Source: a virus
Taxonomy: Duplodnaviria > Heunggongvirae > Uroviricota > Caudoviricetes
Reading direction: 5' to 3' (one strand)
DNA length: 8,652 bases
Virus record (IMG/VR): IMGVR_UViG_648276657_000002
Span: 1-8,652 of that record
Part shown: one piece after another, positions 1-8,652 of the stretch
How the letters are laid out: each line of letters begins with the position of its first letter
How positions within the stretch are numbered: the first letter of the stretch is position 1
Translations under genes and position numbers: made by a program
The notes under the pieces: generated by a model
Told to the model about the DNA's origin: nothing
The model's database searches: none
Seen by the model: the letters and a program-made list of their open reading frames with translations, nothing else

Positions 1-30
1 AAAAAAAAAAAAACCCCCGGGGGGGGGGGG
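1..30. repeat. Homopolymer block A13-C5-G12 at the window edge; likely an assembly, tailing or engineered-junction artifact rather than native phage sequence
   Basis: Direct reading: 13 A, 5 C and 12 G in succession. On the minus strand this reads C12-G5-T13 directly after the stop of the 56..286 gene. Confidence 0.5.
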
Positions 31-55
31 TTCTACAGAGGGTTGTAGCTGGATA

Positions 56-286
56 TCATGAGTAGAAGAAGTATGCCAGTTCTGCTTTTGAGCGCAGCCA
101 TTGTCTTGTTTTACAGGCTTTAAAAAGCCCATTCATCAATACTTTACCTGGCATTTTGCGCTTACCTGTTAAGTGAGTCTGGATATAGTGACTCGTCGTT
201 CCGGCTTCCTGTGCGAAGGCTTCACGCTCATCCGGAGTAAGTGCAAGCCAGTGCTTTTTGAAATCGAAATGTCCGTTATCGCTCAT
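56..286 (-). CDS. Cro-like small HTH DNA-binding regulator (Cro/CI-type HTH), transcribed divergently from the repressor candidate
   Basis: 76-aa ORF. The segment AQEAGTTSHYIQTHLTGKRKMP resembles the Cro/YdaS-type helix-turn-helix (compare lambda Cro QSAINKAIHAGRK). It sits opposite the operator cluster and the repressor candidate, as cro does in lambda. No homology search was run. Confidence 0.5.
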   Translation of the reverse strand: MSDNGHFDFKKHWLALTPDEREAFAQEAGTTSHYIQTHLTGKRKMPGKVLMNGLFKACKTRQWLRSKAELAYFFYS

Positions 287-311
287 AGCTATTGCCTGAT
301 ATTTATTTCAG

Positions 312-340
312 ATAATAAATATTCACCCATAAGGTAACAA
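312..340 (-). promoter_or_regulatory. Candidate sigma70 promoter for the Cro-like gene (pR analogue): -35 TTGTTA (reverse complement of 335..340), 17-bp spacer, -10 TATTAT (reverse complement of 312..317)
   Basis: Hexamers read on the minus strand with 17-bp spacing; an operator-like palindrome at 323..337 lies between the -35 and -10. Confidence 0.4.
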
Positions 341-385
341 AAATCAAGGATAGTTACCCATGAGGTGCATTTACCTGTTGGGTAA
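323..385. promoter_or_regulatory. Operator cluster (OR analogue): three 15-bp palindromes of type TTACC-N5-GGTAA at 323..337 (TCACCcataaGGTAA), 354..368 (TTACCcatgaGGTGC) and 371..385 (TTACCtgttgGGTAA)
   Basis: Inverted-repeat half-sites with a fixed 5-bp spacer, found between the divergent Cro-like and repressor genes; the same motif recurs at 1083..1097 and 1145..1159. Confidence 0.55.
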
Positions 386-398
386 TATTGCTTTAAAT

Positions 399-417
399 TG
401 AATCATCTTCTGATTCA
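399..417. promoter_or_regulatory. Perfect 7-5-7 palindrome TGAATCA-tcttc-TGATTCA just upstream of the repressor start; candidate binding site for a second regulator or an RNA hairpin
   Basis: Exact inverted repeat read directly; its half-site sequence differs from the TTACC/GGTAA operators. Confidence 0.35.
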
Positions 418-440
418 GATATGAGGCGATTTTCCAGAAA

Positions 441-1025
441 ATGAAAAGTATCCAGGACGTCCGCAGGCAAAATCTCAACGACTTGATCGACCGTGAATTC
501 AATGGTGTTCAGACGCGGATGGCAGAAAAACTTGGAACTCAGGCAAATCTGGTAAACCGCTGGGCTCTTGGCAAAAAGGTTATCGGCGACCAGGTTGCGC
601 GAAAAATTGAAGCTGCCGCCAATAAACCCCGTAACTGGCTTGATATCGATCGCTCGCTTTCTCAGGAGGGGTTTCAGCCTGTCGGCCCAAGCGACATTGG
701 TCAGCTGGCGGCTCACAACCTGGAACGCTGGATGAGCGAAAGCCGCGACCTTTCAACTCAGGGAAAACTTCACCGCGCATCCGGCGTCGCCCAGGTGACA
801 ATCAGCCGCCTGTTAAACAATGAGGTCAGCGTTTCCATTTCCACCCTGGAGAATGTTGCATCCGCATTCGGGCGTCACGGCTATGAATTACTGATTCACC
901 CGCACGACCCTGCGACTATCAACTATGACCGCTCGCGCTACGCATTGTTACCCGAAACAGAGAAGGCAAAGATCGAAAGTTACATTGAATTTGTCATCAG
1001 CCAGAACGAAAAAAACAAACAATAA
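441..1025 (+). CDS. Prophage repressor candidate (CI analogue): tandem XRE-type HTH protein with no recognisable S24/LexA-like peptidase domain
   Basis: 194-aa ORF. N-terminal HTH region (QTRMAEKLGTQANLVNRWALGKK ... ARKIEAAANKPRNWLD) is typical of phage repressor HTH_XRE domains, and a second HTH-like segment follows (GVAQVTISRLLNNEVSVSISTLENVASAFG). It is flanked by operator palindromes and followed by an intrinsic terminator, matching the lambda cI position. I see no peptidase-type motif. Confidence 0.6.
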   Translation: MKSIQDVRRQNLNDLIDREFNGVQTRMAEKLGTQANLVNRWALGKKVIGDQVARKIEAAANKPRNWLDIDRSLSQEGFQPVGPSDIGQLAAHNLERWMSESRDLSTQGKLHRASGVAQVTISRLLNNEVSVSISTLENVASAFGRHGYELLIHPHDPATINYDRSRYALLPETEKAKIESYIEFVISQNEKNKQ

Positions 1026-1045
1026 AATCATATTTTTCAGTAAGT

Positions 1046-1071
1046 AAGCCGCCTTCTGGCGGCTTTTTTAT
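1046..1071 (+). terminator. Rho-independent terminator after the repressor gene: 8-bp stem AAGCCGCC/GGCGGCTT, loop TTCT, then a T-run
   Basis: Hairpin plus T6 tract read directly, about 20 nt past the 441..1025 stop codon. Confidence 0.75.
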
Positions 1072-1082
1072 TGCCTGTGCGA

Positions 1083-1159
1083 TTACCTAATGGGTAATTT
1101 TTTTAACTCATATCTATTGACATCAAACCAAATACGCATAATTATTACCTCAACGGTAA
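1083..1159 (+). promoter_or_regulatory. Early-operon promoter (pL analogue) with two operator palindromes (OL analogue): TTACCtaatgGGTAA at 1083..1097, -35 TTGACA at 1117..1122, weak -10 near 1140..1145, TTACCtcaacGGTAA at 1145..1159
   Basis: Perfect -35 consensus hexamer; the operator motif matches the OR sites exactly; one site overlaps the -10 region, consistent with repression of the early operon. Confidence 0.5.
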
Positions 1160-1178
1160 CAGACCGAGGTAACAAGTT

Positions 1179-1331
1179 ATGCAGTGGAAAATCATCAACG
1201 GTTGGTACTGCGTTACTGCATGCGGATTCATGAGCTGGAAGTTCCGCACCTTACAGGAAGGCATCAAGTGGGCTTTCGTCAGCAAAGAAGCTCGCGATGT
1301 GGCCAACGATAACGAGATATGGGAGGGCTGA
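1179..1331 (+). CDS. Small hypothetical protein (50 aa), first ORF of the early operon; not in the supplied ORF track (below its length cutoff)
   Basis: ATG at 1179 with a GAGGT Shine-Dalgarno about 8 nt upstream; translation MQWKIINGWYCVTACGFMSWKFRTLQEGIKWAFVSKEARDVANDNEIWEG; TGA stop at 1329..1331, 2 nt before the next start. No family recognised. Confidence 0.35.
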   Translation: MQWKIINGWYCVTACGFMSWKFRTLQEGIKWAFVSKEARDVANDNEIWEG

Positions 1332-1333
1332 TA

Positions 1334-1633
1334 ATGAACGTTAATCAGCAGAAAAATCTTCAAAAAATCATGCTGGCATTCGACAAGGACTACCGCCTGT
1401 CAGAACAGCTATATGACCGACAAGTTGAACTGATTGAGAGCATCCGACTTCATCAACTGTCCTCAACTTTCGACGTTGTAACAGGCAAAGGCGTTCGTCA
1501 GGAAGTGCTGGAAGCTGCTAAAGACAGCCCTGAGTTCGAAGAACTGATGGATGCCTACCGGCGCGAGGCAATGGCGATTATCGCCCGCTGGGATCTGGCG
1601 GATCAGCTTGATGGGCAGAGGGACGCGGCATGA
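1334..1633 (+). CDS. Hypothetical phage early protein (99 aa), translationally coupled to the downstream exonuclease
   Basis: The track ORF 1319..1633 is trimmed to the ATG at 1334, which has a GGGAGGG Shine-Dalgarno 7 nt upstream. Its stop TGA (1631..1633) overlaps the exonuclease ATG (1630). No family recognised. Confidence 0.55.
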   Translation: MNVNQQKNLQKIMLAFDKDYRLSEQLYDRQVELIESIRLHQLSSTFDVVTGKGVRQEVLEAAKDSPEFEELMDAYRREAMAIIARWDLADQLDGQRDAA

Positions 1634-2529
1634 TGCGGAACGCTGGAATCATGGATAGAACAAAATACATCGGAGGAAGCGATGTTGCAGGGATTCTTGG
1701 AATTAGCCCATGGCGCACCCCGCTTGAGGTTTATCTGGATAAGGTCCAGCCACGTGTCAAACCAGTAGACCCAAGCAAGCAGAAAGTTTTCACGCGTGGC
1801 CAGCGTATGGAGCCATACGTAATAGACCTGCTTTCTGAGGAAACAGGGATGGAAATCGTTCATCGCGGAAACCGCTATATCCACCGTGATTACGATTTTA
1901 TTGCAGCTGAGATCGATGCAGAAGCAGCGTCAGGCGAGAACATTGAGATCAAAACAGTTAGTCCGTTCAAAGCCAAAGAATGGGGAGAAATCCAGACAGA
2001 TGCAATTCCTGTGCATTACACGGCCCAGGCCATGCACGGGTTGATGGTTACAAACAAACAGGTATGCGTTTTCGGTGTGCTTATCGGTGGCGACGACTTC
2101 CGAATCTATCGGGTTGAGCGTGATGAAGAAACTATCCAGGCGATCTTAGAAAAAGAAATCGCTTTCTGGGACCGAGTGAAAAATCTTAACCCGCCGGAAG
2201 CTACCAGCGTAAGCGATGTATCGCTGATGTTTGAGAAAGATGCCGGGACAAGTATCGAGGTTGACGGAAAGGCACTCGCACTATTCAACGATCTACGAGA
2301 CATGAAGTCACGCAGAAAATCACTGGAAGAAGAAATAGCTATATCAGAAGAGAAGCTGAAGATGTACATGCAAGAGCACTCAGTCCTGACCCTGGACGGA
2401 AAGCCGCTCTGCACATGGAAATCTCAGATCAGCAACAGATTCGACCAGAAGCTATTCCAGTCAGTACACCCTGAGTTATTCGAAAAATTCAAAACAACAA
2501 CGACACAACGCGTCTTCAGAATGAAGTAA
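1630..2529 (+). CDS. YqaJ-type viral recombinase exonuclease (lambda Exo-like PD-(D/E)XK alkaline exonuclease), partner of RecT
   Basis: 299-aa ORF with the N-terminal YIGGSDVAGILGISPWRTPLEVY segment typical of YqaJ-family exonucleases; sits immediately upstream of recT. The start could instead be the ATG at 1633 or 1651. Confidence 0.8.
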   Translation: MMRNAGIMDRTKYIGGSDVAGILGISPWRTPLEVYLDKVQPRVKPVDPSKQKVFTRGQRMEPYVIDLLSEETGMEIVHRGNRYIHRDYDFIAAEIDAEAASGENIEIKTVSPFKAKEWGEIQTDAIPVHYTAQAMHGLMVTNKQVCVFGVLIGGDDFRIYRVERDEETIQAILEKEIAFWDRVKNLNPPEATSVSDVSLMFEKDAGTSIEVDGKALALFNDLRDMKSRRKSLEEEIAISEEKLKMYMQEHSVLTLDGKPLCTWKSQISNRFDQKLFQSVHPELFEKFKTTTTQRVFRMK

Positions 2530-2538
2530 GGAGAAAAA

Positions 2539-3561
2539 ATGTCTATCAATGCACTTAAGGCAGCGGCTACCGGTAACCAAGTTGCACATCATAATGAGAA
2601 ACCAACAACTCTGGCCGGACTTCTGGCAGACCCAAAAATAAAAGCCCAGATGGCTTTGGCACTTCCAAAGCACATGACAGCAGACCGTCTGGCGCGCATA
2701 GCAACCACAGAGATCCGAAAGGTTCCAAAACTTGCATCATGCGACCAAGCCAGCTTCCTGGGGGCAATTATGCAATGTGCCCAATTGGGTCTTGAACCAG
2801 GTGGAGCTCTTGGACACGCTTACCTGATACCGTTCGACAAACGCCAGAAAGTAAATGGAAGATGGGAAACCGTATCTACAGAAGCACAGCTGATTATCGG
2901 CTATCGCGGAATGATTGACCTTGCCCGCCGCTCTGGGCAGATCCTGAGTATCTCGGCTCGTACCGTACATACAAACGACAAATTCAGCTACTCATACGGC
3001 CTGGAAGAAACGCTCGAGCATTTACCTTGCGAAACAGGTGACCGCGGAGAATTAACGCACGTTTACGCCGTTGCACGACTGAAAGATGGCGGAGTCCAAT
3101 TTGAAGTTATGAGCCGGGCAGACGTTGAGAAAGTTCGTGCACTGAGCAAAGCCGGTAGCAGTGGCCCATGGGTTGATCACTTCGATGAGATGGCTAAAAA
3201 AACAGTAATTCGCCGACTGTTCAAATATCTTCCTGTTTCTATTGAGATGCAGAAGGCTGTTGTTATGGATGAGCGCGCTGAAGCTGGACTTAGCCAAGAT
3301 AACGCAGCTGTTATCACTGGTGAATATTCCGTAGTTGACGATGAGCGTCAACACCTATCGCCAATTTCAGATTCAGAACGAGAAGAAGCTCGAGAATATA
3401 TCATCGCGATACTTAATAGCCTGGATCCATCTGCTGAAGATGCAAAAACGATGTTCAAGCGCGCTGAAAATGAAATTAACACCATGGCTGAAAAGCTCGG
3501 TGATGAATATCACCAAAAATTCATGATGACGCTTAACGATATGCGTCCAGAATTCGAGTAA
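2539..3561 (+). CDS. recT: RecT-family single-strand annealing recombinase
   Basis: 340-aa ORF with long stretches matching E. coli Rac RecT as I recall it (LPKHMTADRLARIATTEIRKVP, LGLEPGGALGHAYLIPF, LIIGYRGMIDLARRSGQI, HVYAVARLKDGGVQFEVM, GPWVDHFDEMAKKTVIRRLFKYLPVSIEMQKAV). Strong AAGGAG RBS upstream. Confidence 0.92.
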   Translation: MSINALKAAATGNQVAHHNEKPTTLAGLLADPKIKAQMALALPKHMTADRLARIATTEIRKVPKLASCDQASFLGAIMQCAQLGLEPGGALGHAYLIPFDKRQKVNGRWETVSTEAQLIIGYRGMIDLARRSGQILSISARTVHTNDKFSYSYGLEETLEHLPCETGDRGELTHVYAVARLKDGGVQFEVMSRADVEKVRALSKAGSSGPWVDHFDEMAKKTVIRRLFKYLPVSIEMQKAVVMDERAEAGLSQDNAAVITGEYSVVDDERQHLSPISDSEREEAREYIIAILNSLDPSAEDAKTMFKRAENEINTMAEKLGDEYHQKFMMTLNDMRPEFE

Positions 3562-3569
3562 CCACCACC

Positions 3570-3588
3570 GCGGCGCCACGCGCGCCGC
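3570..3588 (+). other. GC-only hairpin (7-bp stem GCGGCGC/GCGCCGC, 5-nt loop) in the recT-alpA intergenic region, with no following T-tract
   Basis: Read directly; it lacks the U-run of a canonical intrinsic terminator. Confidence 0.4.
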
Positions 3589-3610
3589 ACTGCAACCAAG
3601 AGAGGTATTT

Positions 3611-3859
3611 ATGAAAGGTGCATTAGGTAAGAAGGAACTCCTGGCGGTGGTGCCACTGTCATGGAGCACTATCGACCGCATGGAGCGCACAGGGGAATTT
3701 CCTAAGCGCTGGTATATCACTGACAAACGCTGCGCATGGAACCGTGATGAAGTTGAGCGTTGGCTTGATGAACGTCAGGCAGCAAGCCCGGCAGAGTTCC
3801 AGGGTAAAAAGCCTCCTGTTCAGCAACGTGTATATCGTCCTGTGAGCAACGCTGCATGA
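3611..3859 (+). CDS. AlpA-family phage regulatory protein (excisionase-like winged HTH)
   Basis: 82-aa ORF; KKELLAVVPLSWSTIDRMERTGEFPKRWYITDKRCAWNRDEVERWLDER matches the AlpA/Xis-type pattern (compare LPEV..LTGLSRSTIYRL...G.FP.P..LG.R...W...EV..W); AGAGAGG RBS upstream. Confidence 0.7.
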   Translation: MKGALGKKELLAVVPLSWSTIDRMERTGEFPKRWYITDKRCAWNRDEVERWLDERQAASPAEFQGKKPPVQQRVYRPVSNAA

Positions 3860-4016
3860 GTGTGCTGCTAAGGCACTGGAGCAAATGGTCAGGATGGTAC
3901 TTATTCCTGGCCTCTGTTTCAGCATGGCTTTATCTGCTGGCATTAATTTTCAGAGAGGGTTGGATTAAGTGAGAAAGTTAAGCCGACTTGAAAAATATCA
4001 CATGAACAAGGTTTCA

Positions 4017-4268
4017 ATGCGCAGTCCGTCAAAGATTGTCGCCGTTACTCCTGCGGCGATAGAGATCGAAAAACGCGCGATTGAAAGAGAGAAAAAAGGG
4101 CAGTTCCGCATTGCCGCCCACCTTTGGCTTCAGTGTATGGATGTTGCTTCTGGTGATGTTGAGCGTGCAAGGATCGCGGTTCGCAGGGACCAATGTATCA
4201 CAAAAGGTAACGGCCTTCGCCGTGGCGACTATAGCGGTATAGGATGTTGCGGGGTAGTTTATGACTAA
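4017..4268 (+). CDS. PerC/ANR-like small transcriptional regulator candidate; the track ORF starts at GTG 3969, and the true start is uncertain (ATG 4002 or 4017)
   Basis: The segment EKKGQFRIAAHLWLQCMDVASGDVERARIAVRRDQC resembles the PerC/Pch pattern (G.WRRAA.RW.DV ... RR..C), recalled from memory and not searched. An AAGG motif lies 7 nt before ATG 4017. Confidence 0.45.
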   Translation: MRSPSKIVAVTPAAIEIEKRAIEREKKGQFRIAAHLWLQCMDVASGDVERARIAVRRDQCITKGNGLRRGDYSGIGCCGVVYD

Positions 4269-4911
4269 GAAATACACACTAATCTATGCAGATCCACCCT
4301 GGGTATACCGGGACAAAGCCGCAGATGGTAATCGCGGTGCCGGTTTTAAATATCCGGTTATGAGTGTGATGGATATCTGCCGCCTTCCTGTGTGGGATTT
4401 GGCCGATGAAAACTGTCTGTTGGCAATGTGGTGGGTGCCAACACAACCACTCGAAGCGCTAAAAGTTGTTGAAGCCTGGGGATTCCGTCTGATGACCATG
4501 AAGGGCTTCACGTGGATAAAATGTGGTAGTCGACAACCAGATAAACTGGTTATGGGTATGGGACACATGACTCGCGCCAATAGTGAAGATTGCCTGTTTG
4601 CAGTAAAGGGAAAACTACCTCCGCGCATTAATGCAGGGATCGTTCAGTCATTTACCGCACCGCGGCTTGAGCATTCAAGAAAACCAGATGTCGTTCGTGA
4701 AAAACTTGTGCAATTGTTAGGCGATGTTTCTCGCATTGAACTGTTCGCCCGCCAGTCGTCTCATGGCTTCGATGTTTGGGGTAATCAGTGCAAAGACCCG
4801 GCGGTGCAACTACACCCAGGATACGCGTTGGATATTGGCGGATTAACAAATGCATTCAGCAATTCTCCGCTTTCACCAACAGACAACCAAGGCCGGGAGC
4901 GTGCAGCATGA
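4261..4911 (+). CDS. MT-A70-family DNA N6-adenine methyltransferase (orphan phage methyltransferase)
   Basis: 216-aa ORF with the DPPW catalytic motif in context IYADPPWVY near the N-terminus. The start overlaps the upstream stop by 8 nt, and the stop TGA overlaps the next ATG. Confidence 0.8.
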
Positions 4912-5567
4912 ACCTATATCAACGCATCAATGGCGCTGACTGGTGCAATATCTTCGTCGTCGGCGATCTGCATGGGTGCTACACGCTGCTGATGAACGAA
5001 CTCGACAAAGTTTCATTCGACCCGGCGCGCGATTTGCTTATTTCCGTTGGTGACCTTGTTGACCGCGGCGCTGAAAACGTCGAATGCCTAGATTTGATTA
5101 CTATGCCGTGGTTCCGAGCTGTTCGTGGCAACCATGAGCAGATGATGCTGGATGCACTGGTCAACGGCGGAAATTTCGGACATTGGATGTCAAACGGCGG
5201 TGGATGGTGGCACCAACTTGATTCTGAGCAGGATGTGCAACTCAAATACCTTCTGCCAAAGATTACCAACCTCCCGATGATTATCGAACTGGTTACCGGC
5301 AATAAGAAGGTCGTCATCTGCCACGCAGACTACCCGCACAACGAATACGCATTCAATAAGCCAGTACCAGAAGAAATGGTGATATGGAATCGTGAGCGGG
5401 TTAGCGACGCGCAGGACGGTATTGTCTCGGAGATAACCGGTGCCGATTTGTTCATCTTCGGTCATACGCCAGCACATCACCCACTGGTGTATGCAAACCA
5501 GATGTACATCGACACAGGGGCAGTGTTCTGCGGAAATCTGACGCTTACCAAAGTCCAAGAAAGATAG
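4908..5567 (+). CDS. Lambda-type Ser/Thr protein phosphatase (calcineurin-like metallophosphatase, PrpA/PrpB / lambda ORF221 family)
   Basis: Metallophosphatase motifs GDLHG, GDLVDRG and GNHE, with an N-terminus ([12 protein letters not shown]) resembling E. coli PrpA. Start placed at the ATG at 4908 (ATGA overlap with the methyltransferase stop) rather than the track start at 4788. Confidence 0.85.
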
Positions 5568-5569
5568 AA

Positions 5570-6742
5570 TTATTTATTACTGTCTTCCATCCACTTCTCA
5601 AACTTCGACGGGGAGAACGGAATCAGATCCGTATGCTCCCCGTTAATCCAGGAATCAATCATATCGGCCCACTGCTGCAACATGTAGGCGCGCTGTCTGG
5701 CGTATTCCGCTTTGTTATATACGGCGCGCACACCTTTCTGCTCATGTGCCAGAGCCTTTTCAATCCAGTCTGAAGGATAACCAGCCTCATGCAACAACGT
5801 ACTGGCTGTACGGCGCATATCGTGTACGGTGAAGTCCTGAATATGCTCACCATCTTCATTTATTATTTTCACCGTTCTGTCGATCAGAGAGTTCAGCGCG
5901 GCATTAGATAATGGCTTCCGGAAGTTGTAACGACCAGGAACCAGATATTCACTTCCACCAGCGCACATCTGCAACCCGACCAATATATCCTGTGCCTGTT
6001 TAGGCAGGTAAATAACGTGCGCCCGGCTTCCCTTCATGCGGTCTGAAGGAATTGTCCATGTCCATTTTTTAAAATCTATTTCGTCCCACGTTGCATTGGT
6101 GAATTCGCCTTTACGAACCATAGTGATAAGCACCAGCTTTAAAGCCATTTTCATAGTACCCATAGCACCAATGGCATCCAGCGTGCGGAAGAACAGGCCA
6201 ATTTCTTCTGGTGTCAGTGTTCGCTCTCGTGGTTTAAATATGGCGATAGACGAAGGTTTAATGTCAGCCGCAGGATTAAATAAACCATGACCACGGTCAT
6301 TGGCGTGACGGTATACGCTGCTGATGATCTCCCTGGCCTGTACTGCTGTTGCACGGCCACCGCGTTCGACAATCCGGTCACACAAATCACGAACCATCGA
6401 TGTGGTAATTTCAGCCATCATTTTGTTGCCAAGAACCGGAAGTATGTCACGGTCGATCACCGCCTGTTTCATTGCGCGGGTACTGTCAGCCAGGATGACG
6501 TGTTTCATATAACTGTCGGTATGTACCGCAAACGTCTCGGCACCACGAATCTTTTTGATACCGTCACGTTTAGCCGCGGCCGGTGACTGGCCTGCTTTAA
6601 GCAGTTTCTTTGCAGCAATCAGTTCTTCCCGCGCTTCTGCCAGGCTGATACCGTCACGCCCATACTGCCCTATTACCAGTGTTTCGCGGCGACCGTTGAT
6701 ACGGTAGTCATAGCGAAACGAGACCGTGCCTGACGTAAGCAC
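5570..6742 (-). CDS. P4-like tyrosine integrase; the reading frame continues upstream to 6805 and is interrupted by an in-frame TAA (6806..6808) inside the conserved N-terminal motif, so it may be a pseudogene or an N-terminally truncated product
   Basis: 390-aa ORF from GTG. Arm-binding region (GLYVAVLTSGTVSFRYDYRINGRRETLVIGQYGRDGISLAEARE) and catalytic region (HDMRRTASTLL ... VYNKAEY) match tyrosine recombinases. Upstream in frame: GTG-L-T-D-T-K-stop-K-T-L-K-P-Q-D-K-L-Y-K-V-S-D-R-D-G-L-Y, the canonical LTDT..K..KP.DK.Y start of P4-like integrases. Confidence 0.85.
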   Translation of the reverse strand: MLTSGTVSFRYDYRINGRRETLVIGQYGRDGISLAEAREELIAAKKLLKAGQSPAAAKRDGIKKIRGAETFAVHTDSYMKHVILADSTRAMKQAVIDRDILPVLGNKMMAEITTSMVRDLCDRIVERGGRATAVQAREIISSVYRHANDRGHGLFNPAADIKPSSIAIFKPRERTLTPEEIGLFFRTLDAIGAMGTMKMALKLVLITMVRKGEFTNATWDEIDFKKWTWTIPSDRMKGSRAHVIYLPKQAQDILVGLQMCAGGSEYLVPGRYNFRKPLSNAALNSLIDRTVKIINEDGEHIQDFTVHDMRRTASTLLHEAGYPSDWIEKALAHEQKGVRAVYNKAEYARQRAYMLQQWADMIDSWINGEHTDLIPFSPSKFEKWMEDSNK

Positions 6743-6853
6743 AGCTACATACAGCCCGTCACGATCGGAGACCTTGTACAGTTTGTCCTGCGGCTTGAGG
6801 GTTTTTTATTTTGTATCGGTAAGCACAATTCACCCGTATAGAAACCATTTTCA

Positions 6854-6891
6854 TGACGGTATGAGAGTATACCTTTAAGGTAATACCGTCA
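6854..6891. promoter_or_regulatory. 9-bp perfect inverted repeat (TGACGGTAT ... ATACCGTCA, 20-bp spacer) enclosing operator-like half-sites (ATACCtttaaGGTAA at 6869..6883); candidate int regulatory or att-associated site between the integrase and guaA
   Basis: Read directly; lies in the int-guaA intergenic region where the prophage-chromosome junction is expected. Confidence 0.35.
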
Positions 6892-6940
6892 CCTGTACCG
6901 CCGAAAAATATGGTGTAGAGTGAATAGAAATGAATACATA

Positions 6941-6970
6941 AAAACAAAAACCCTCTGTAAAAACAGAGGG
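6941..6970 (-). terminator. Rho-independent terminator of guaA (stem CCCTCTG/CAGAGGG, then a T-rich run on the minus strand)
   Basis: Minus-strand read: CCCTCTG-TTTTTA-CAGAGGG followed by TTTTTGTTTT, about 50 nt downstream of the guaA stop. Confidence 0.75.
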
Positions 6971-7018
6971 TTAAATTAGTATCTGAATAGGAATGAGTTG
7001 CTATGAGTTAGCTGTTAA

Positions 7019-8596
7019 TCATTCCCACTCAATAGTCGCTGGCGGCTTGCCGCTGATGTCATACACCACGCGGGAAATACCGTTCACTTCATTGATAATA
7101 CGGTTGGAAACGCGGCCGAGGAAGTCGTACGGCAGATGTGCCCAGTGTGCGGTCATAAAGTCGATGGTTTCGACAGCACGCAGAGAGACAACCCAGTCAT
7201 ACTTACGACCATCGCCCATTACGCCAACGGAACGTACTGGCAGGAAGACGGTGAACGCCTGGCTGACTTTGTCGTACAGGTCCGCTTTACGCAGTTCTTC
7301 AATGAAGATGGCGTCAGCACGGCGCAGCAGGTCACAATACTCTTTCTTCACTTCTCCCAGAACACGAACGCCAAGGCCTGGTCCCGGGAACGGGTGACGG
7401 TACAACATGTCATACGGTAGGCCCAGCTCCAGACCAATCTTACGCACTTCGTCTTTGAACAGCTCTTTCAGCGGTTCAACCAGGCCCATCTTCATCTCTT
7501 TCGGCAGGCCACCCACGTTGTGGTGAGATTTGATGACGTGTGCTTTACCGGTTGCAGAAGCAGCAGATTCGATAACGTCAGGGTAGATGGTGCCCTGCGC
7601 CAGCCACTTCACGTCTTCCAGTTTCAGCGCTTCTTCATCGAATACTTCAACGAAAACGCGACCGATAATTTTACGTTTTGCTTCCGGATCGTTTTCGCCA
7701 GCCAGCGCTGACAAGAAGCGATCTTCTGCCGGTACGTGAACAATGTTCAGACCAAAGTGATCGCCAAACATATCCAGAACCTGCTCTGCTTCGTTGAGAC
7801 GCAGCAGGCCGTTGTCGACGAATACGCAAGTCAGGTTTTTACCGATAGCGCGGTGCAACAGCATTGCGGTAACGGAGGAATCCACGCCACCAGAGAGGCC
7901 GAGGATGACTTTATCGTCGCCCACTTGCTCGCGGATGCGGGCTACAGCGTCGTCGATAATTTTCGCTGGCGTCCACAGGGCTTCACACTGGCAGATATCA
8001 CGCACAAAACGCTCCAGCATGCGCATACCCTGGCGGGTGTGAGTCACTTCCGGGTGGAACTGTACGCCATAGAAGCGTTTTTCTTCGTTGGCCATGATGG
8101 CAAACGGGCAGCTTTCGGTGCTGGCTACGGTGACGAAGTCGGACGGGATAGCGGTAACTTTATCGCCGTGGCTCATCCAGACGTCCAGCAGCGGTTTACC
8201 ATCTGCGGTCAGCGCATCTTCGATACCGCGAACCAGTGCGCTGTCGTTTACGACTTCAACCTGCGCGTAGCCAAATTCACGTTCGTTAGAGGCTTCAACG
8301 TGACCGCCCAACTGCATTGCCATGGTCTGCATGCCATAGCAAACGCCGAATACCGGTACGCCTGCTTCAAAGACATACTGCGGCGCACGCGGGCTGTTTT
8401 CTTCGGTGGTGCTTTCCGGGCCGCCGGAAAGAATAATGCCGCTTGGATTGAAGTCACGAATTTGTGCTTCTGTCACATCCCACGCCCACAGTTCGCAGTA
8501 AACACCCAGCTCACGCACGCGGCGCGCAACTAGTTGAGTGTACTGAGAACCGAAGTCCAGAATGAGGATGCGATGCTTATGAATGTTTTCCGTCAT
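7019..8596 (-). CDS. guaA: GMP synthase (glutamine-hydrolysing), full length
   Basis: 525-aa ORF beginning [40 protein letters not shown] and ending ATIEWE, recognised as enterobacterial GuaA; includes the class I glutamine amidotransferase domain and the SGGVDSS ATP-pyrophosphatase motif. Confidence 0.97.
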
Positions 8597-8652
8597 TGAC
8601 GCTTATTCCGAGGCAAGTGAAACAGATAATATAAATCGCCCGACATGAAGTC

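Follow-up and report, generated by a model that had tools for sequence, protein, structure and literature searches.

The integrase-proximal junction of a Uetakevirus-type prophage at the 3' end of guaA and putative integrase arm-type sites in its P arm

The window analysed here is a stretch of 8,652 nucleotides (positions 1 to 8,652 of the IMG/VR virus record IMGVR_UViG_648276657_000002) in which a tyrosine integrase gene, int, and guaA lie on the same (minus) strand, the int 5' end facing the guaA 3' end. The locus raises the question where between these genes the phage ends and the chromosome begins, and what the repeated sequences between them are for. A sequence-only reading had rightly recognized that a prophage adjoins guaA at its 3' end and that int faces guaA, and had placed the junction within 6806..6940, next to what it took for the intact guaA terminator at 6941..6970. 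Comparison with phage and bacterial genomes identifies the window as the integrase-proximal junction (attR) of a prophage of the phiV10/epsilon15 type (Uetakevirus), inserted at the guaA 3' end. The element, its core and its guaA target are already known from the literature and from GenBank annotation; the main value of the analysis lies in the correction, and the current understanding of these phages is unchanged. We consider the whole explanation, a Uetakevirus attR at guaA with crossover in AATCATTCCCACTCAAT and a P arm that carries integrase arm-type sites and a probable int promoter, to be highly probable. No tRNA or tmRNA gene that might serve as integration target was present in the window. 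The coordinates of the features are collected in Table 1.

Table 1. Features of the attachment region and associated genes, in window coordinates.
Feature	Position	Strand	Basis or remark
AlpA-family small HTH protein gene	3611..3859	+	Pfam Phage_AlpA, E = 2.8e-5
Tyrosine integrase gene (int)	5570..6826	-	GTG start at 6826; translation and comparison with the AHB29 integrase
Second intragenic ATACCGTCAC copy	6558..6567	+	int nt 260-269, encodes RDGI; 13/14 identical
Intragenic ATACCGTCAC copy, candidate distal arm-type site	6648..6657	+	int nt 170-179, encodes RDGI
Non-coding phage P arm of attR, int start codon to core	6827..7016	.	contiguous in free phages
Site a, ATACCGTCAT	6853..6862	-	left half of inverted repeat; varies in 6/14 relatives
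Candidate int promoter -10 hexamer TATACT	6866..6871	-	T-A-T-A-N-T invariant in 14 sequences
Near-operator dyad ATACC-TTTAA-GGTAA	6869..6883	.	one mismatch versus TTACC-N5-GGTAA
Site b, ATACCGTCAC	6883..6892	+	right half of inverted repeat; invariant in 14/14 related att arms
Degenerate tandem site c, GTACCGCCGA	6895..6904	+	12 nt after site b
Repeat R1, TGAATAGAAATGA	6921..6933	+	direct repeat of R2 across terminator, 12/13 identical, spacing 63
Phage-borne rho-independent terminator	stem 6972..6949, U-tract to 6939	-	stem AACCCTCTGT / ACAGAGGGTT
Repeat R2, TGAATAGGAATGA	6984..6996	+	direct repeat of R1; imperfect inverted copy of core
att core (crossover region), AATCATTCCCACTCAAT	7017..7033	.	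homology boundaries of prophage-free and free-phage genomes; published core
guaA (GMP synthase)	7019..8596	-	last codons regenerated by att core

To locate the junction, a 501-nt query running from the int start into guaA was compared with complete E. coli genomes. All 5426 of 5426 genomes gave a match, but the coverage was at least 80% in only 569. In the other 4857 genomes, with coverage below 80%, the match started at ~7015-7023 and mostly at 7017, among the matches listed. The prophage-free genomes, K-12 among them, aligned no further left than query position 418, corresponding to 7017 in the window. Alignment of K-12 with the window showed identity from the core (AATCATTCC) rightward, whereas to the left of the core the P arm was absent from K-12 and its sequence was unrelated to the window, save for a terminator with an identical stem. 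Seen from the phage side, 36 free phage records (including phiV10, epsilon15, vB_EcoP_ZX5, PAS61, SPN1S and Tyrion) matched the window up to exactly 7033. The comparison with prophage-free genomes, on which the sequence-only reading had staked its placement, thus put the junction elsewhere: homology to prophage-free genomes starts at 7017 and homology to free phages ends at 7033.

The reading was correct in stating that the exact core cannot be defined without the other prophage end, which lies outside the window. That end was searched in a related lysogen, AHB29 (99.9% identity with the window over 5587-8652), and both the AATCATTCCCACTCAAT repeat and the native guaA terminator were found there. 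In free phiV10 and epsilon15 the sequence corresponding to 6800-7033 is contiguous and continues into TATTTACG; in AHB29 this same TATTTACG sequence occurs at the other prophage end, beside yfgI, after the native guaA terminator and a second AATCATTCCCACTCAAT copy. A direct core repeat at the other prophage end has also been reported for ZX5 lysogens (PMC9782041). The attP/attB core published for ZX5, phiV10 and epsilon15, attgagtgggaatgatt, is identical to AATCATTCCCACTCAAT; PCR and sequencing of attB, attL and attR confirmed it for ZX5, and it was reported for phiV10 and epsilon15 as well (PMC9782041). The published distance from the core to the int 5' end is 190 bp, equal to the value in the window (PMC9782041).

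The homology boundaries bracket AATCATTCCCACTCAAT and the direct repeat consists of it; this 17-bp core is therefore the crossover region, and recombination took place inside it. A single copy of the core is present in the window. Its sequence on the guaA strand, ATT GAG TGG GAA TGA TT, comprises the four final guaA codons (I E W E), the stop and 2 nt, and since the phage brings an identical copy of the core guaA keeps these codons and its stop. The junction therefore overlaps the guaA stop and lies 77 nt to the right of the interval proposed earlier, a placement that was off by about 80-210 bp. For phages that integrate at the 3' end of a gene the junction may fall on the stop codon itself. 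Placed at 7017..7033, the junction defines where the prophage ends, for purposes of annotation and of designing excision or attB PCR assays, and guaA is a common site, with 569 of 5426 complete E. coli genomes carrying an integrase of this type there.

The DNA between int and the core is of phage origin. The P arm is 98% identical to those of the free phages phiV10, ZX5 and PAS61 and about 81-85% identical to those of epsilon15, SPN1S, Tyrion, BUCT554 and PAT1. In an alignment of seven free phage genomes, int and the P arm together (5587-7033) were 98% identical to phiV10, ZX5 and PAS61. By these alignments 6806..7016 is wholly phage DNA, including the supposed guaA terminator, and the interval 6806..6940 comprises the first seven int codons and part of the P arm of the attachment site.

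A terminator is indeed present close to 6941..6970, as a hairpin on the minus strand (6972..6949) that is followed by a T-run, but the claim that it is the intact chromosomal guaA terminator did not survive the comparison since it is present in free phages. It has the G+C-rich hairpin and the U-tract on the transcribed strand that mark a rho-independent terminator, with a 10-bp stem, a 4-nt loop and the tail TTTGTTTTTA; the predicted folding energy is -16.5 kcal/mol (z = -4.5). In the genomes of free phiV10, epsilon15 and five further phages it occupies the same position, and the phiV10 and epsilon15 records list it as a terminator. Its place in the free phage is after the Rz/Rz1 lysis genes. 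The stem, AACCCTCTGT / ACAGAGGGTT, is the same as that of the native K-12 guaA terminator, and because of this identity it was reasonable, from the sequence alone, to place the junction inside 6806..6940 and to regard 6941-6970 as the chromosomal guaA terminator. The loop is AAAA, however, versus AGTA in the native terminator, and the segment between terminator and guaA stop is 46 nt long versus 27 nt in K-12, the two being unrelated in sequence. Together with the occurrence of all of 6800-7033 in free phage genomes, the native guaA terminator at the far prophage end in AHB29 and the published core at the guaA stop, these differences leave that placement with virtually no probability.

After integration the phage terminator serves guaA, and the native terminator comes to lie at the far end of the prophage, about 40 kb off. 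In this position the phage terminator would end guaA transcription, and it would also shield int from guaBA read-through. A phage may carry a near-copy of a host terminator, and an intact terminator is thus no marker of the chromosomal edge.

The perfect 9-bp inverted repeat described in the sequence-only reading was recovered exactly, its halves TGACGGTAT (6854-6862) and ATACCGTCA (6883-6891) being 20 nt apart. By itself such a repeat is no more than mildly unusual for 135 nt of sequence (44 of 2000 shuffles). Both halves are copies of the motif ATACCGTCA(C), and this motif recurs: the 10-mer ATACCGTCAC occurs six times in the window with at most one mismatch, versus 0.34 expected, and none of 200 shuffles reached six. 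The positions are 6883, 6853 (inverted), 6648, 6558, 6305 (inverted) and one in guaA. Two of these copies were set aside as probably fortuitous: the copy at 6305-6314 (minus) is unconserved in epsilon15 or most relatives, and the one-mismatch copy at 7394-7403 in guaA lies outside the element.

E. coli, Salmonella, Enterobacter, Klebsiella, Citrobacter and other hosts supplied 14 related att arms in which the motif was followed. At sites b and c the Klebsiella relatives have two perfect copies in tandem, ATACCGTCAGGT and then ATACCGTCAA. Every free phage examined has, in its P' arm, a motif copy with a tandem half-copy 12 nt before it, RTACCGTTTTAT followed by ATACCGTCAC. A repeated motif that is distinct from the core was thus found in both arms of attP and is kept among relatives. 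The attachment regions of phiV10, epsilon15 and ZX5 are like that of the window, with the identical 17-bp core, the 190-bp distance from core to int, the same terminator and the same ATACCGTCAC repeats. The GenBank record of epsilon15 annotates the same 10-mers as integrase protein_bind features, which are sequence predictions.

The inverted repeat may also be viewed as an RNA element. On this reading 6854-6891 would form a hairpin within the leader of the int mRNA or within read-through RNA and act as an RNase III site that controls the stability of the int mRNA. The epsilon15 GenBank record labels the homologous 39 nt 'RNaseIII, mRNA processing', and the minus-strand RNA of the repeat has a predicted folding energy of -16.1 kcal/mol. 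The fold is nevertheless unexceptional, with z = -2.25 and 5 of 200 shuffles equally stable, and Rfam returned no family match, only sub-threshold terminator-like noise. In the comparison of the 14 sequences compensatory change was scored per sequence and not per column; a 1-nt indel misaligns site a. The upstream arm of the hairpin, site b, was unchanged in all of them, whereas the downstream arm, site a, was altered in 6 of 14. In none of the 6 does site b compensate for the change, and 4 of them lose a pair. The compensatory changes expected of a structured RNA were thus absent from the 14 sequences. In addition, the same 10-mer stands unpaired in the P' arm and inside int, and if the candidate -10 hexamer discussed below is right the upstream arm would lie outside the transcript of the int promoter. 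There is some likeness to the sib/RNase III retroregulation of lambda in that a hairpin lies near att and carries the RNase III label in epsilon15, but here the hairpin is upstream of int and not downstream and shows no covariation, which makes the likeness nominal. We therefore consider an RNase III site very unlikely. Since site b is invariant while site a drifts without compensation, recognition by a protein is favoured over an RNA hairpin.

The integrase has the domains expected for such recognition, with Pfam matches to Arm-DNA-bind_3 (E = 4.6e-17), Phage_int_M and Phage_integrase. Because the motif in both arms changes together with the integrase, as described below, and because Int has an Arm-DNA-bind_3 domain, the pattern points to the ATACCGTCA(C) motifs as putative integrase arm-type binding sites. 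The N-terminal arm-binding domain of Int would bind the ATACCGTCA sites in both arms, and meanwhile the catalytic domains would act on the core, by which the recombination complex would be assembled.

Two further copies of the motif lie within the int reading frame. Both are annotated as integrase-binding in the epsilon15 GenBank record, again as predictions. Within the first 480 nt of int, the copy at 6648..6657 is the one 10-mer that shows no variation at all among the 14 sequences; of the 160 third codon positions there, only 29 do not vary. Both copies are kept in relatives down to about 60% protein identity (Pantoea, Proteus, Tolumonas), even where a flanking amino acid has changed. We read this pattern as DNA-level constraint at synonymous sites, and on the same comparison the extent of the functional P arm is probably about 470 bp, counted from the core. 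With 360-460 bp between them and the core, the copies are far out for an intasome. Both encode RDGI, and part of their conservation is thus at the protein level.

The position of the terminator has a consequence for the expression of int. With a strong terminator just upstream, int should have its own promoter within 6827-6948. A scan of 6700-7100 for sigma-70 consensus promoters gave nothing at threshold. The best -10 candidate, suggested by conservation only, is the TATACT hexamer, which is TATAAT in epsilon15 and TATATT in Superficieibacter; each relative has one of these three forms. The only -35-like hexamer is GTGACG, which lies inside site b at 15 nt from the candidate -10. On the int strand the order is GGTGACGGTAT-TACCTTAAAGG-TATACT-CTC-ATACCGTCA, that is, site b, an 11-nt spacer, the hexamer and site a. 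Because the int 5' end adjoins the P arm, the putative arm sites probably overlap the int promoter and run into the int reading frame. Occupancy of these sites by Int would limit int transcription, an autoregulation that would be built into the attachment site.

The sequence-only reading had also drawn attention to an ATACC-N5-GGTAA element resembling the immunity operators, and in this it was accurate. The element, ATACCTTTAAGGTAA, lies at 6869-6883 and is a one-mismatch version of TTACC-N5-GGTAA, which is present in perfect form at 371, 1083 and 1145. Repressor bound at this dyad would possibly limit int transcription too. If the dyad were a low-affinity operator, the phage repressor (ORF 441..1025) would keep int off in the lysogen by promoter occlusion. 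The overlap of the dyad with the candidate -10 agrees with such a role, as does the genus-wide operator consensus (A)TTACC-N5-GGTAA(T), of which epsilon15 has 11 perfect sites, a Klebsiella phage 9 and the window 3. Among the 14 relatives the half-sites do not vary, in contrast to the 5-nt spacer. In a Pantoea relative with an unalignable arm, a one-mismatch dyad of its own stands 42 nt upstream of int, and a perfect operator follows shortly after the gene. Relatives from Proteus keep the order of tandem sites, a -10 (TATAAA) and an inverted site, but their spacer is unrelated and the dyad is missing, which would fit a lineage-specific operator.

Against these points, the dyad matches ATTACC/GGTAAT at 10 of 12 positions whereas seven repressor-annotated sites of epsilon15 match at 12 of 12, and none of the 14 relatives has a perfect TTACC at this place. 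The conserved bases of the dyad are also explained by the overlapping site b (GGTAATACCGTCA) and -10 (TATAnT). The epsilon15 annotators did not call the dyad a repressor site, and the Buttiauxella copy is homologous and hence gives no independent evidence. An argument against an operator that was based on the divergent epsilon15 repressor was dropped, the operator consensus being genus-wide. Weighing these observations, we regard repression of int through the dyad as possible but rather unlikely; it would be compatible with the arm-site explanation. Literature on the repressor operators of SPC32H contained nothing bearing on the att arm. Of the two modes of int control suggested earlier, control by integrase bound to its arm is plausible and well supported by the comparison, while repressor control is no more than possible.

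To place the arm-type motif in a wider context, one genome per species was scanned for relatives of the integrase. This gave 80 relatives with 52-90% identity, of which 76 lie directly after guaA. In 72 guaA-adjacent relatives the arm could not be aligned with the window, yet it carried repeats of the ATACCGTCA type or of the ATACCATG type, according to integrase subfamily. Integrases with identities between 90% and about 56% are accompanied by copies of the ATACCGTCA type, those of Pantoea, Proteus and Tolumonas (59-71%) included. In the group with 52-55% identity its place is taken by ATACCATG, of which there are 182 exact copies in 20.5 kb of arm sequence versus 1 in 50 kb of guaA control sequence. 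This distant guaA integrase subfamily thus differs in its arm repeat, and it also differs in the repeats that flank the terminator. A scan of viral_contigs with the phiV10 integrase yielded 80 loci at 98-100% identity that were mostly cut at the int start, and no comparative footprint was obtained from them.

A terminator recurs in the family, and in 46 loci it starts 43-49 nt past the guaA stop. Direct repeats specific to the lineage flank it in 22 of the 46 (p<=0.05), at spacings of about 54, 64, 75, 85 and 95 nt. In the window these are R1 and R2, both conserved in 14 of 14 relatives, and the CTATTCA of R1 is invariant. On the guaA mRNA strand R2 can pair with the core, giving a predicted hairpin of -18.8 kcal/mol (z = -4.5).

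A known system with which this arrangement can be compared is the attP of lambda, which is served by a heterobivalent Int and has the arm-type sites P1, P2 and P'1-3 as well as sites for Xis and IHF. The likeness consists in an integrase with a separate arm-binding domain and in an arm motif that is distinct from the core and present in both arms, including tandem copies. There is also a gene for a small accessory protein, Xis in lambda and AlpA here. Unlike in lambda, int is here transcribed away from att with its 5' end beside the P arm, and a terminator lies inside the arm; the arm sites here are predicted from sequence. A homologue of the small HTH protein gene is annotated AlpA in a Klebsiella phage, and its product is a candidate excisionase partner of the integrase. 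By analogy to the Xis sites of lambda, R1 and R2 may bind this AlpA-family protein, which is speculation.

The guaA site is also used by islands, and the location of 76 of the 80 integrase relatives fits the preference for guaA known from such elements. The guaA island GIsul2 inserts at GAGTGGGA, inside the core, and AlpA is its excision factor (PMC9376610). Elements with P4-family integrases such as GIsul2 resemble the present prophage in their target, in the order of guaA followed by int and in the AlpA-type excision factor, but they are islands and not phages.

Taken further, the P arm might be a combined recombination and regulation module across the family of guaA-targeting integrases. 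Its arm-type sites would extend ~470 bp from the core into int, where selection would act at synonymous positions, and the int promoter would lie between arm sites and, in the phiV10/epsilon15 group, be overlapped by a weak repressor operator, such that Int and repressor would gate int. The terminator 43-49 nt past the guaA stop would be bracketed by helically phased lineage-specific repeats acting as sites for an AlpA-type factor. This larger proposal is tentative, and we think it doubtful that it holds in full. The layout of arm sites, promoter, near-operator and terminator repeats provides concrete and cheap targets for studying integrase control.

The copy of int in the window deviates from those of its relatives. 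Compared to AHB29 and phiV10, codon 7 is an in-frame TAA (6808..6806), accompanied by N9T; the TAA is private to this copy and distinguishes it from phiV10, epsilon15 and ZX5. The TAA/N9T variant was present in 0 of 537 complete E. coli genomes that carry the region. The change is equivalent to one T less and one C more in two short runs and is for this reason possibly a sequencing error. If the TAA is real, the next start is the GTG at 6742, the arm-binding domain would lack its first 28 residues, and excision of the prophage would probably fail. A second difference concerns the neighbour of int, which is DUF1382 in phiV10 and AHB29 and a metallophosphatase gene in this copy, which marks the early region as mosaic.

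Integrase relatives were recovered by scanning one genome per species. The integrase gene was located immediately downstream of guaA in 76 of 80 such loci (L093-L172, 52-90% identity). The hosts were Gamma-, Beta- and Alphaproteobacteria, plus a single MAG from the Opitutaceae. As an attachment site, the conserved C-terminus of GuaA (...IEWE*) seems to be in very wide use. The arm between the guaA stop codon and the int start carries its own repeated motif in the distant subfamily (L110-L172), where ATACCATG replaces ATACCGTCA, the motif read as an integrase arm-type site, with 3-6 exact copies per arm. Exact copies of ATACCATG totaled 182 in 20.5 kb of arm sequence, and the guaA control sequence (50 kb) had a single copy.

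In the locus from Buttiauxella sp. B2 (L101, integrase identity 62%) the guaA C-terminal coding sequence was not detected within the 1.5 kb upstream flank. The region 1380..1500 of this locus retains the module GACGGTATTACC-N5-GGTATACTC together with tandem and inverted copies of ATACCGTCA. The element may be unintegrated, or it may have inserted elsewhere.

The element-borne terminator started 43-49 nt past the guaA stop codon in 46 of the loci among L093-L172. The direct repeats flanking this terminator, which in the window occupy 6921-6933 and 6984-6996, were lineage-specific. Their spacings, near 54, 64, 75, 85 and 95 nt, are suggestive of helical phasing. These repeats may be sites for an excision factor. 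For the minus strand of window positions 6975..7040 an RNA hairpin was predicted in which the attachment core, formed by the guaA coding end, pairs with the second repeat (-18.8 kcal/mol, z = -4.5). This predicted hairpin arises solely in the lysogen or phage version of the sequence.

The reading frame of the integrase in the window copy is interrupted at codon 7 (6806..6808) by an in-frame TAA, where the related lysogen AHB29 and the free phage phiV10 have TTA (Leu). Codon 9 (6800..6802) carries an N9T substitution; it is AAC (Asn) in both AHB29 and phiV10. The TAA/N9T variant was found in none of the 537 complete E. coli genomes that have the region, and it is either an inactivating mutation private to this copy or an error in sequencing a homopolymer. 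The window itself opens with a run of A13 C5 G12 at positions 1..30 (aaaaaaaaaaaaacccccgggggggggggg), and homology of the related AHB29 prophage to the window starts only at position 22. The run has the appearance of an artefact of assembly or of the contig end, not of a biological feature.

Window segments 1634-3557 and 4914-5586 are missing in the otherwise near-identical AHB29 prophage, and the early region is therefore mosaic. Genes in and next to the second segment are listed below with the repressor operators.

Coordinates of genes and operators in the window
Feature	Coordinates	Location	Basis
Repressor operators, TTACC-N5-GGTAA type	323-337, 371-385, 1083-1097, 1145-1159	either side of repressor gene 441..1025	
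MT-A70 methyltransferase gene	4261..4911	ahead of metallophosphatase gene	
Metallophosphatase gene	ORF 4788..5567	in segment 4914-5586, adjoins int	Pfam Metallophos

The operator consensus is genus-wide and its sites are spread over entire genomes: the free phage epsilon15 has 11 perfect sites, and Klebsiella phage BUCT711 has 9.
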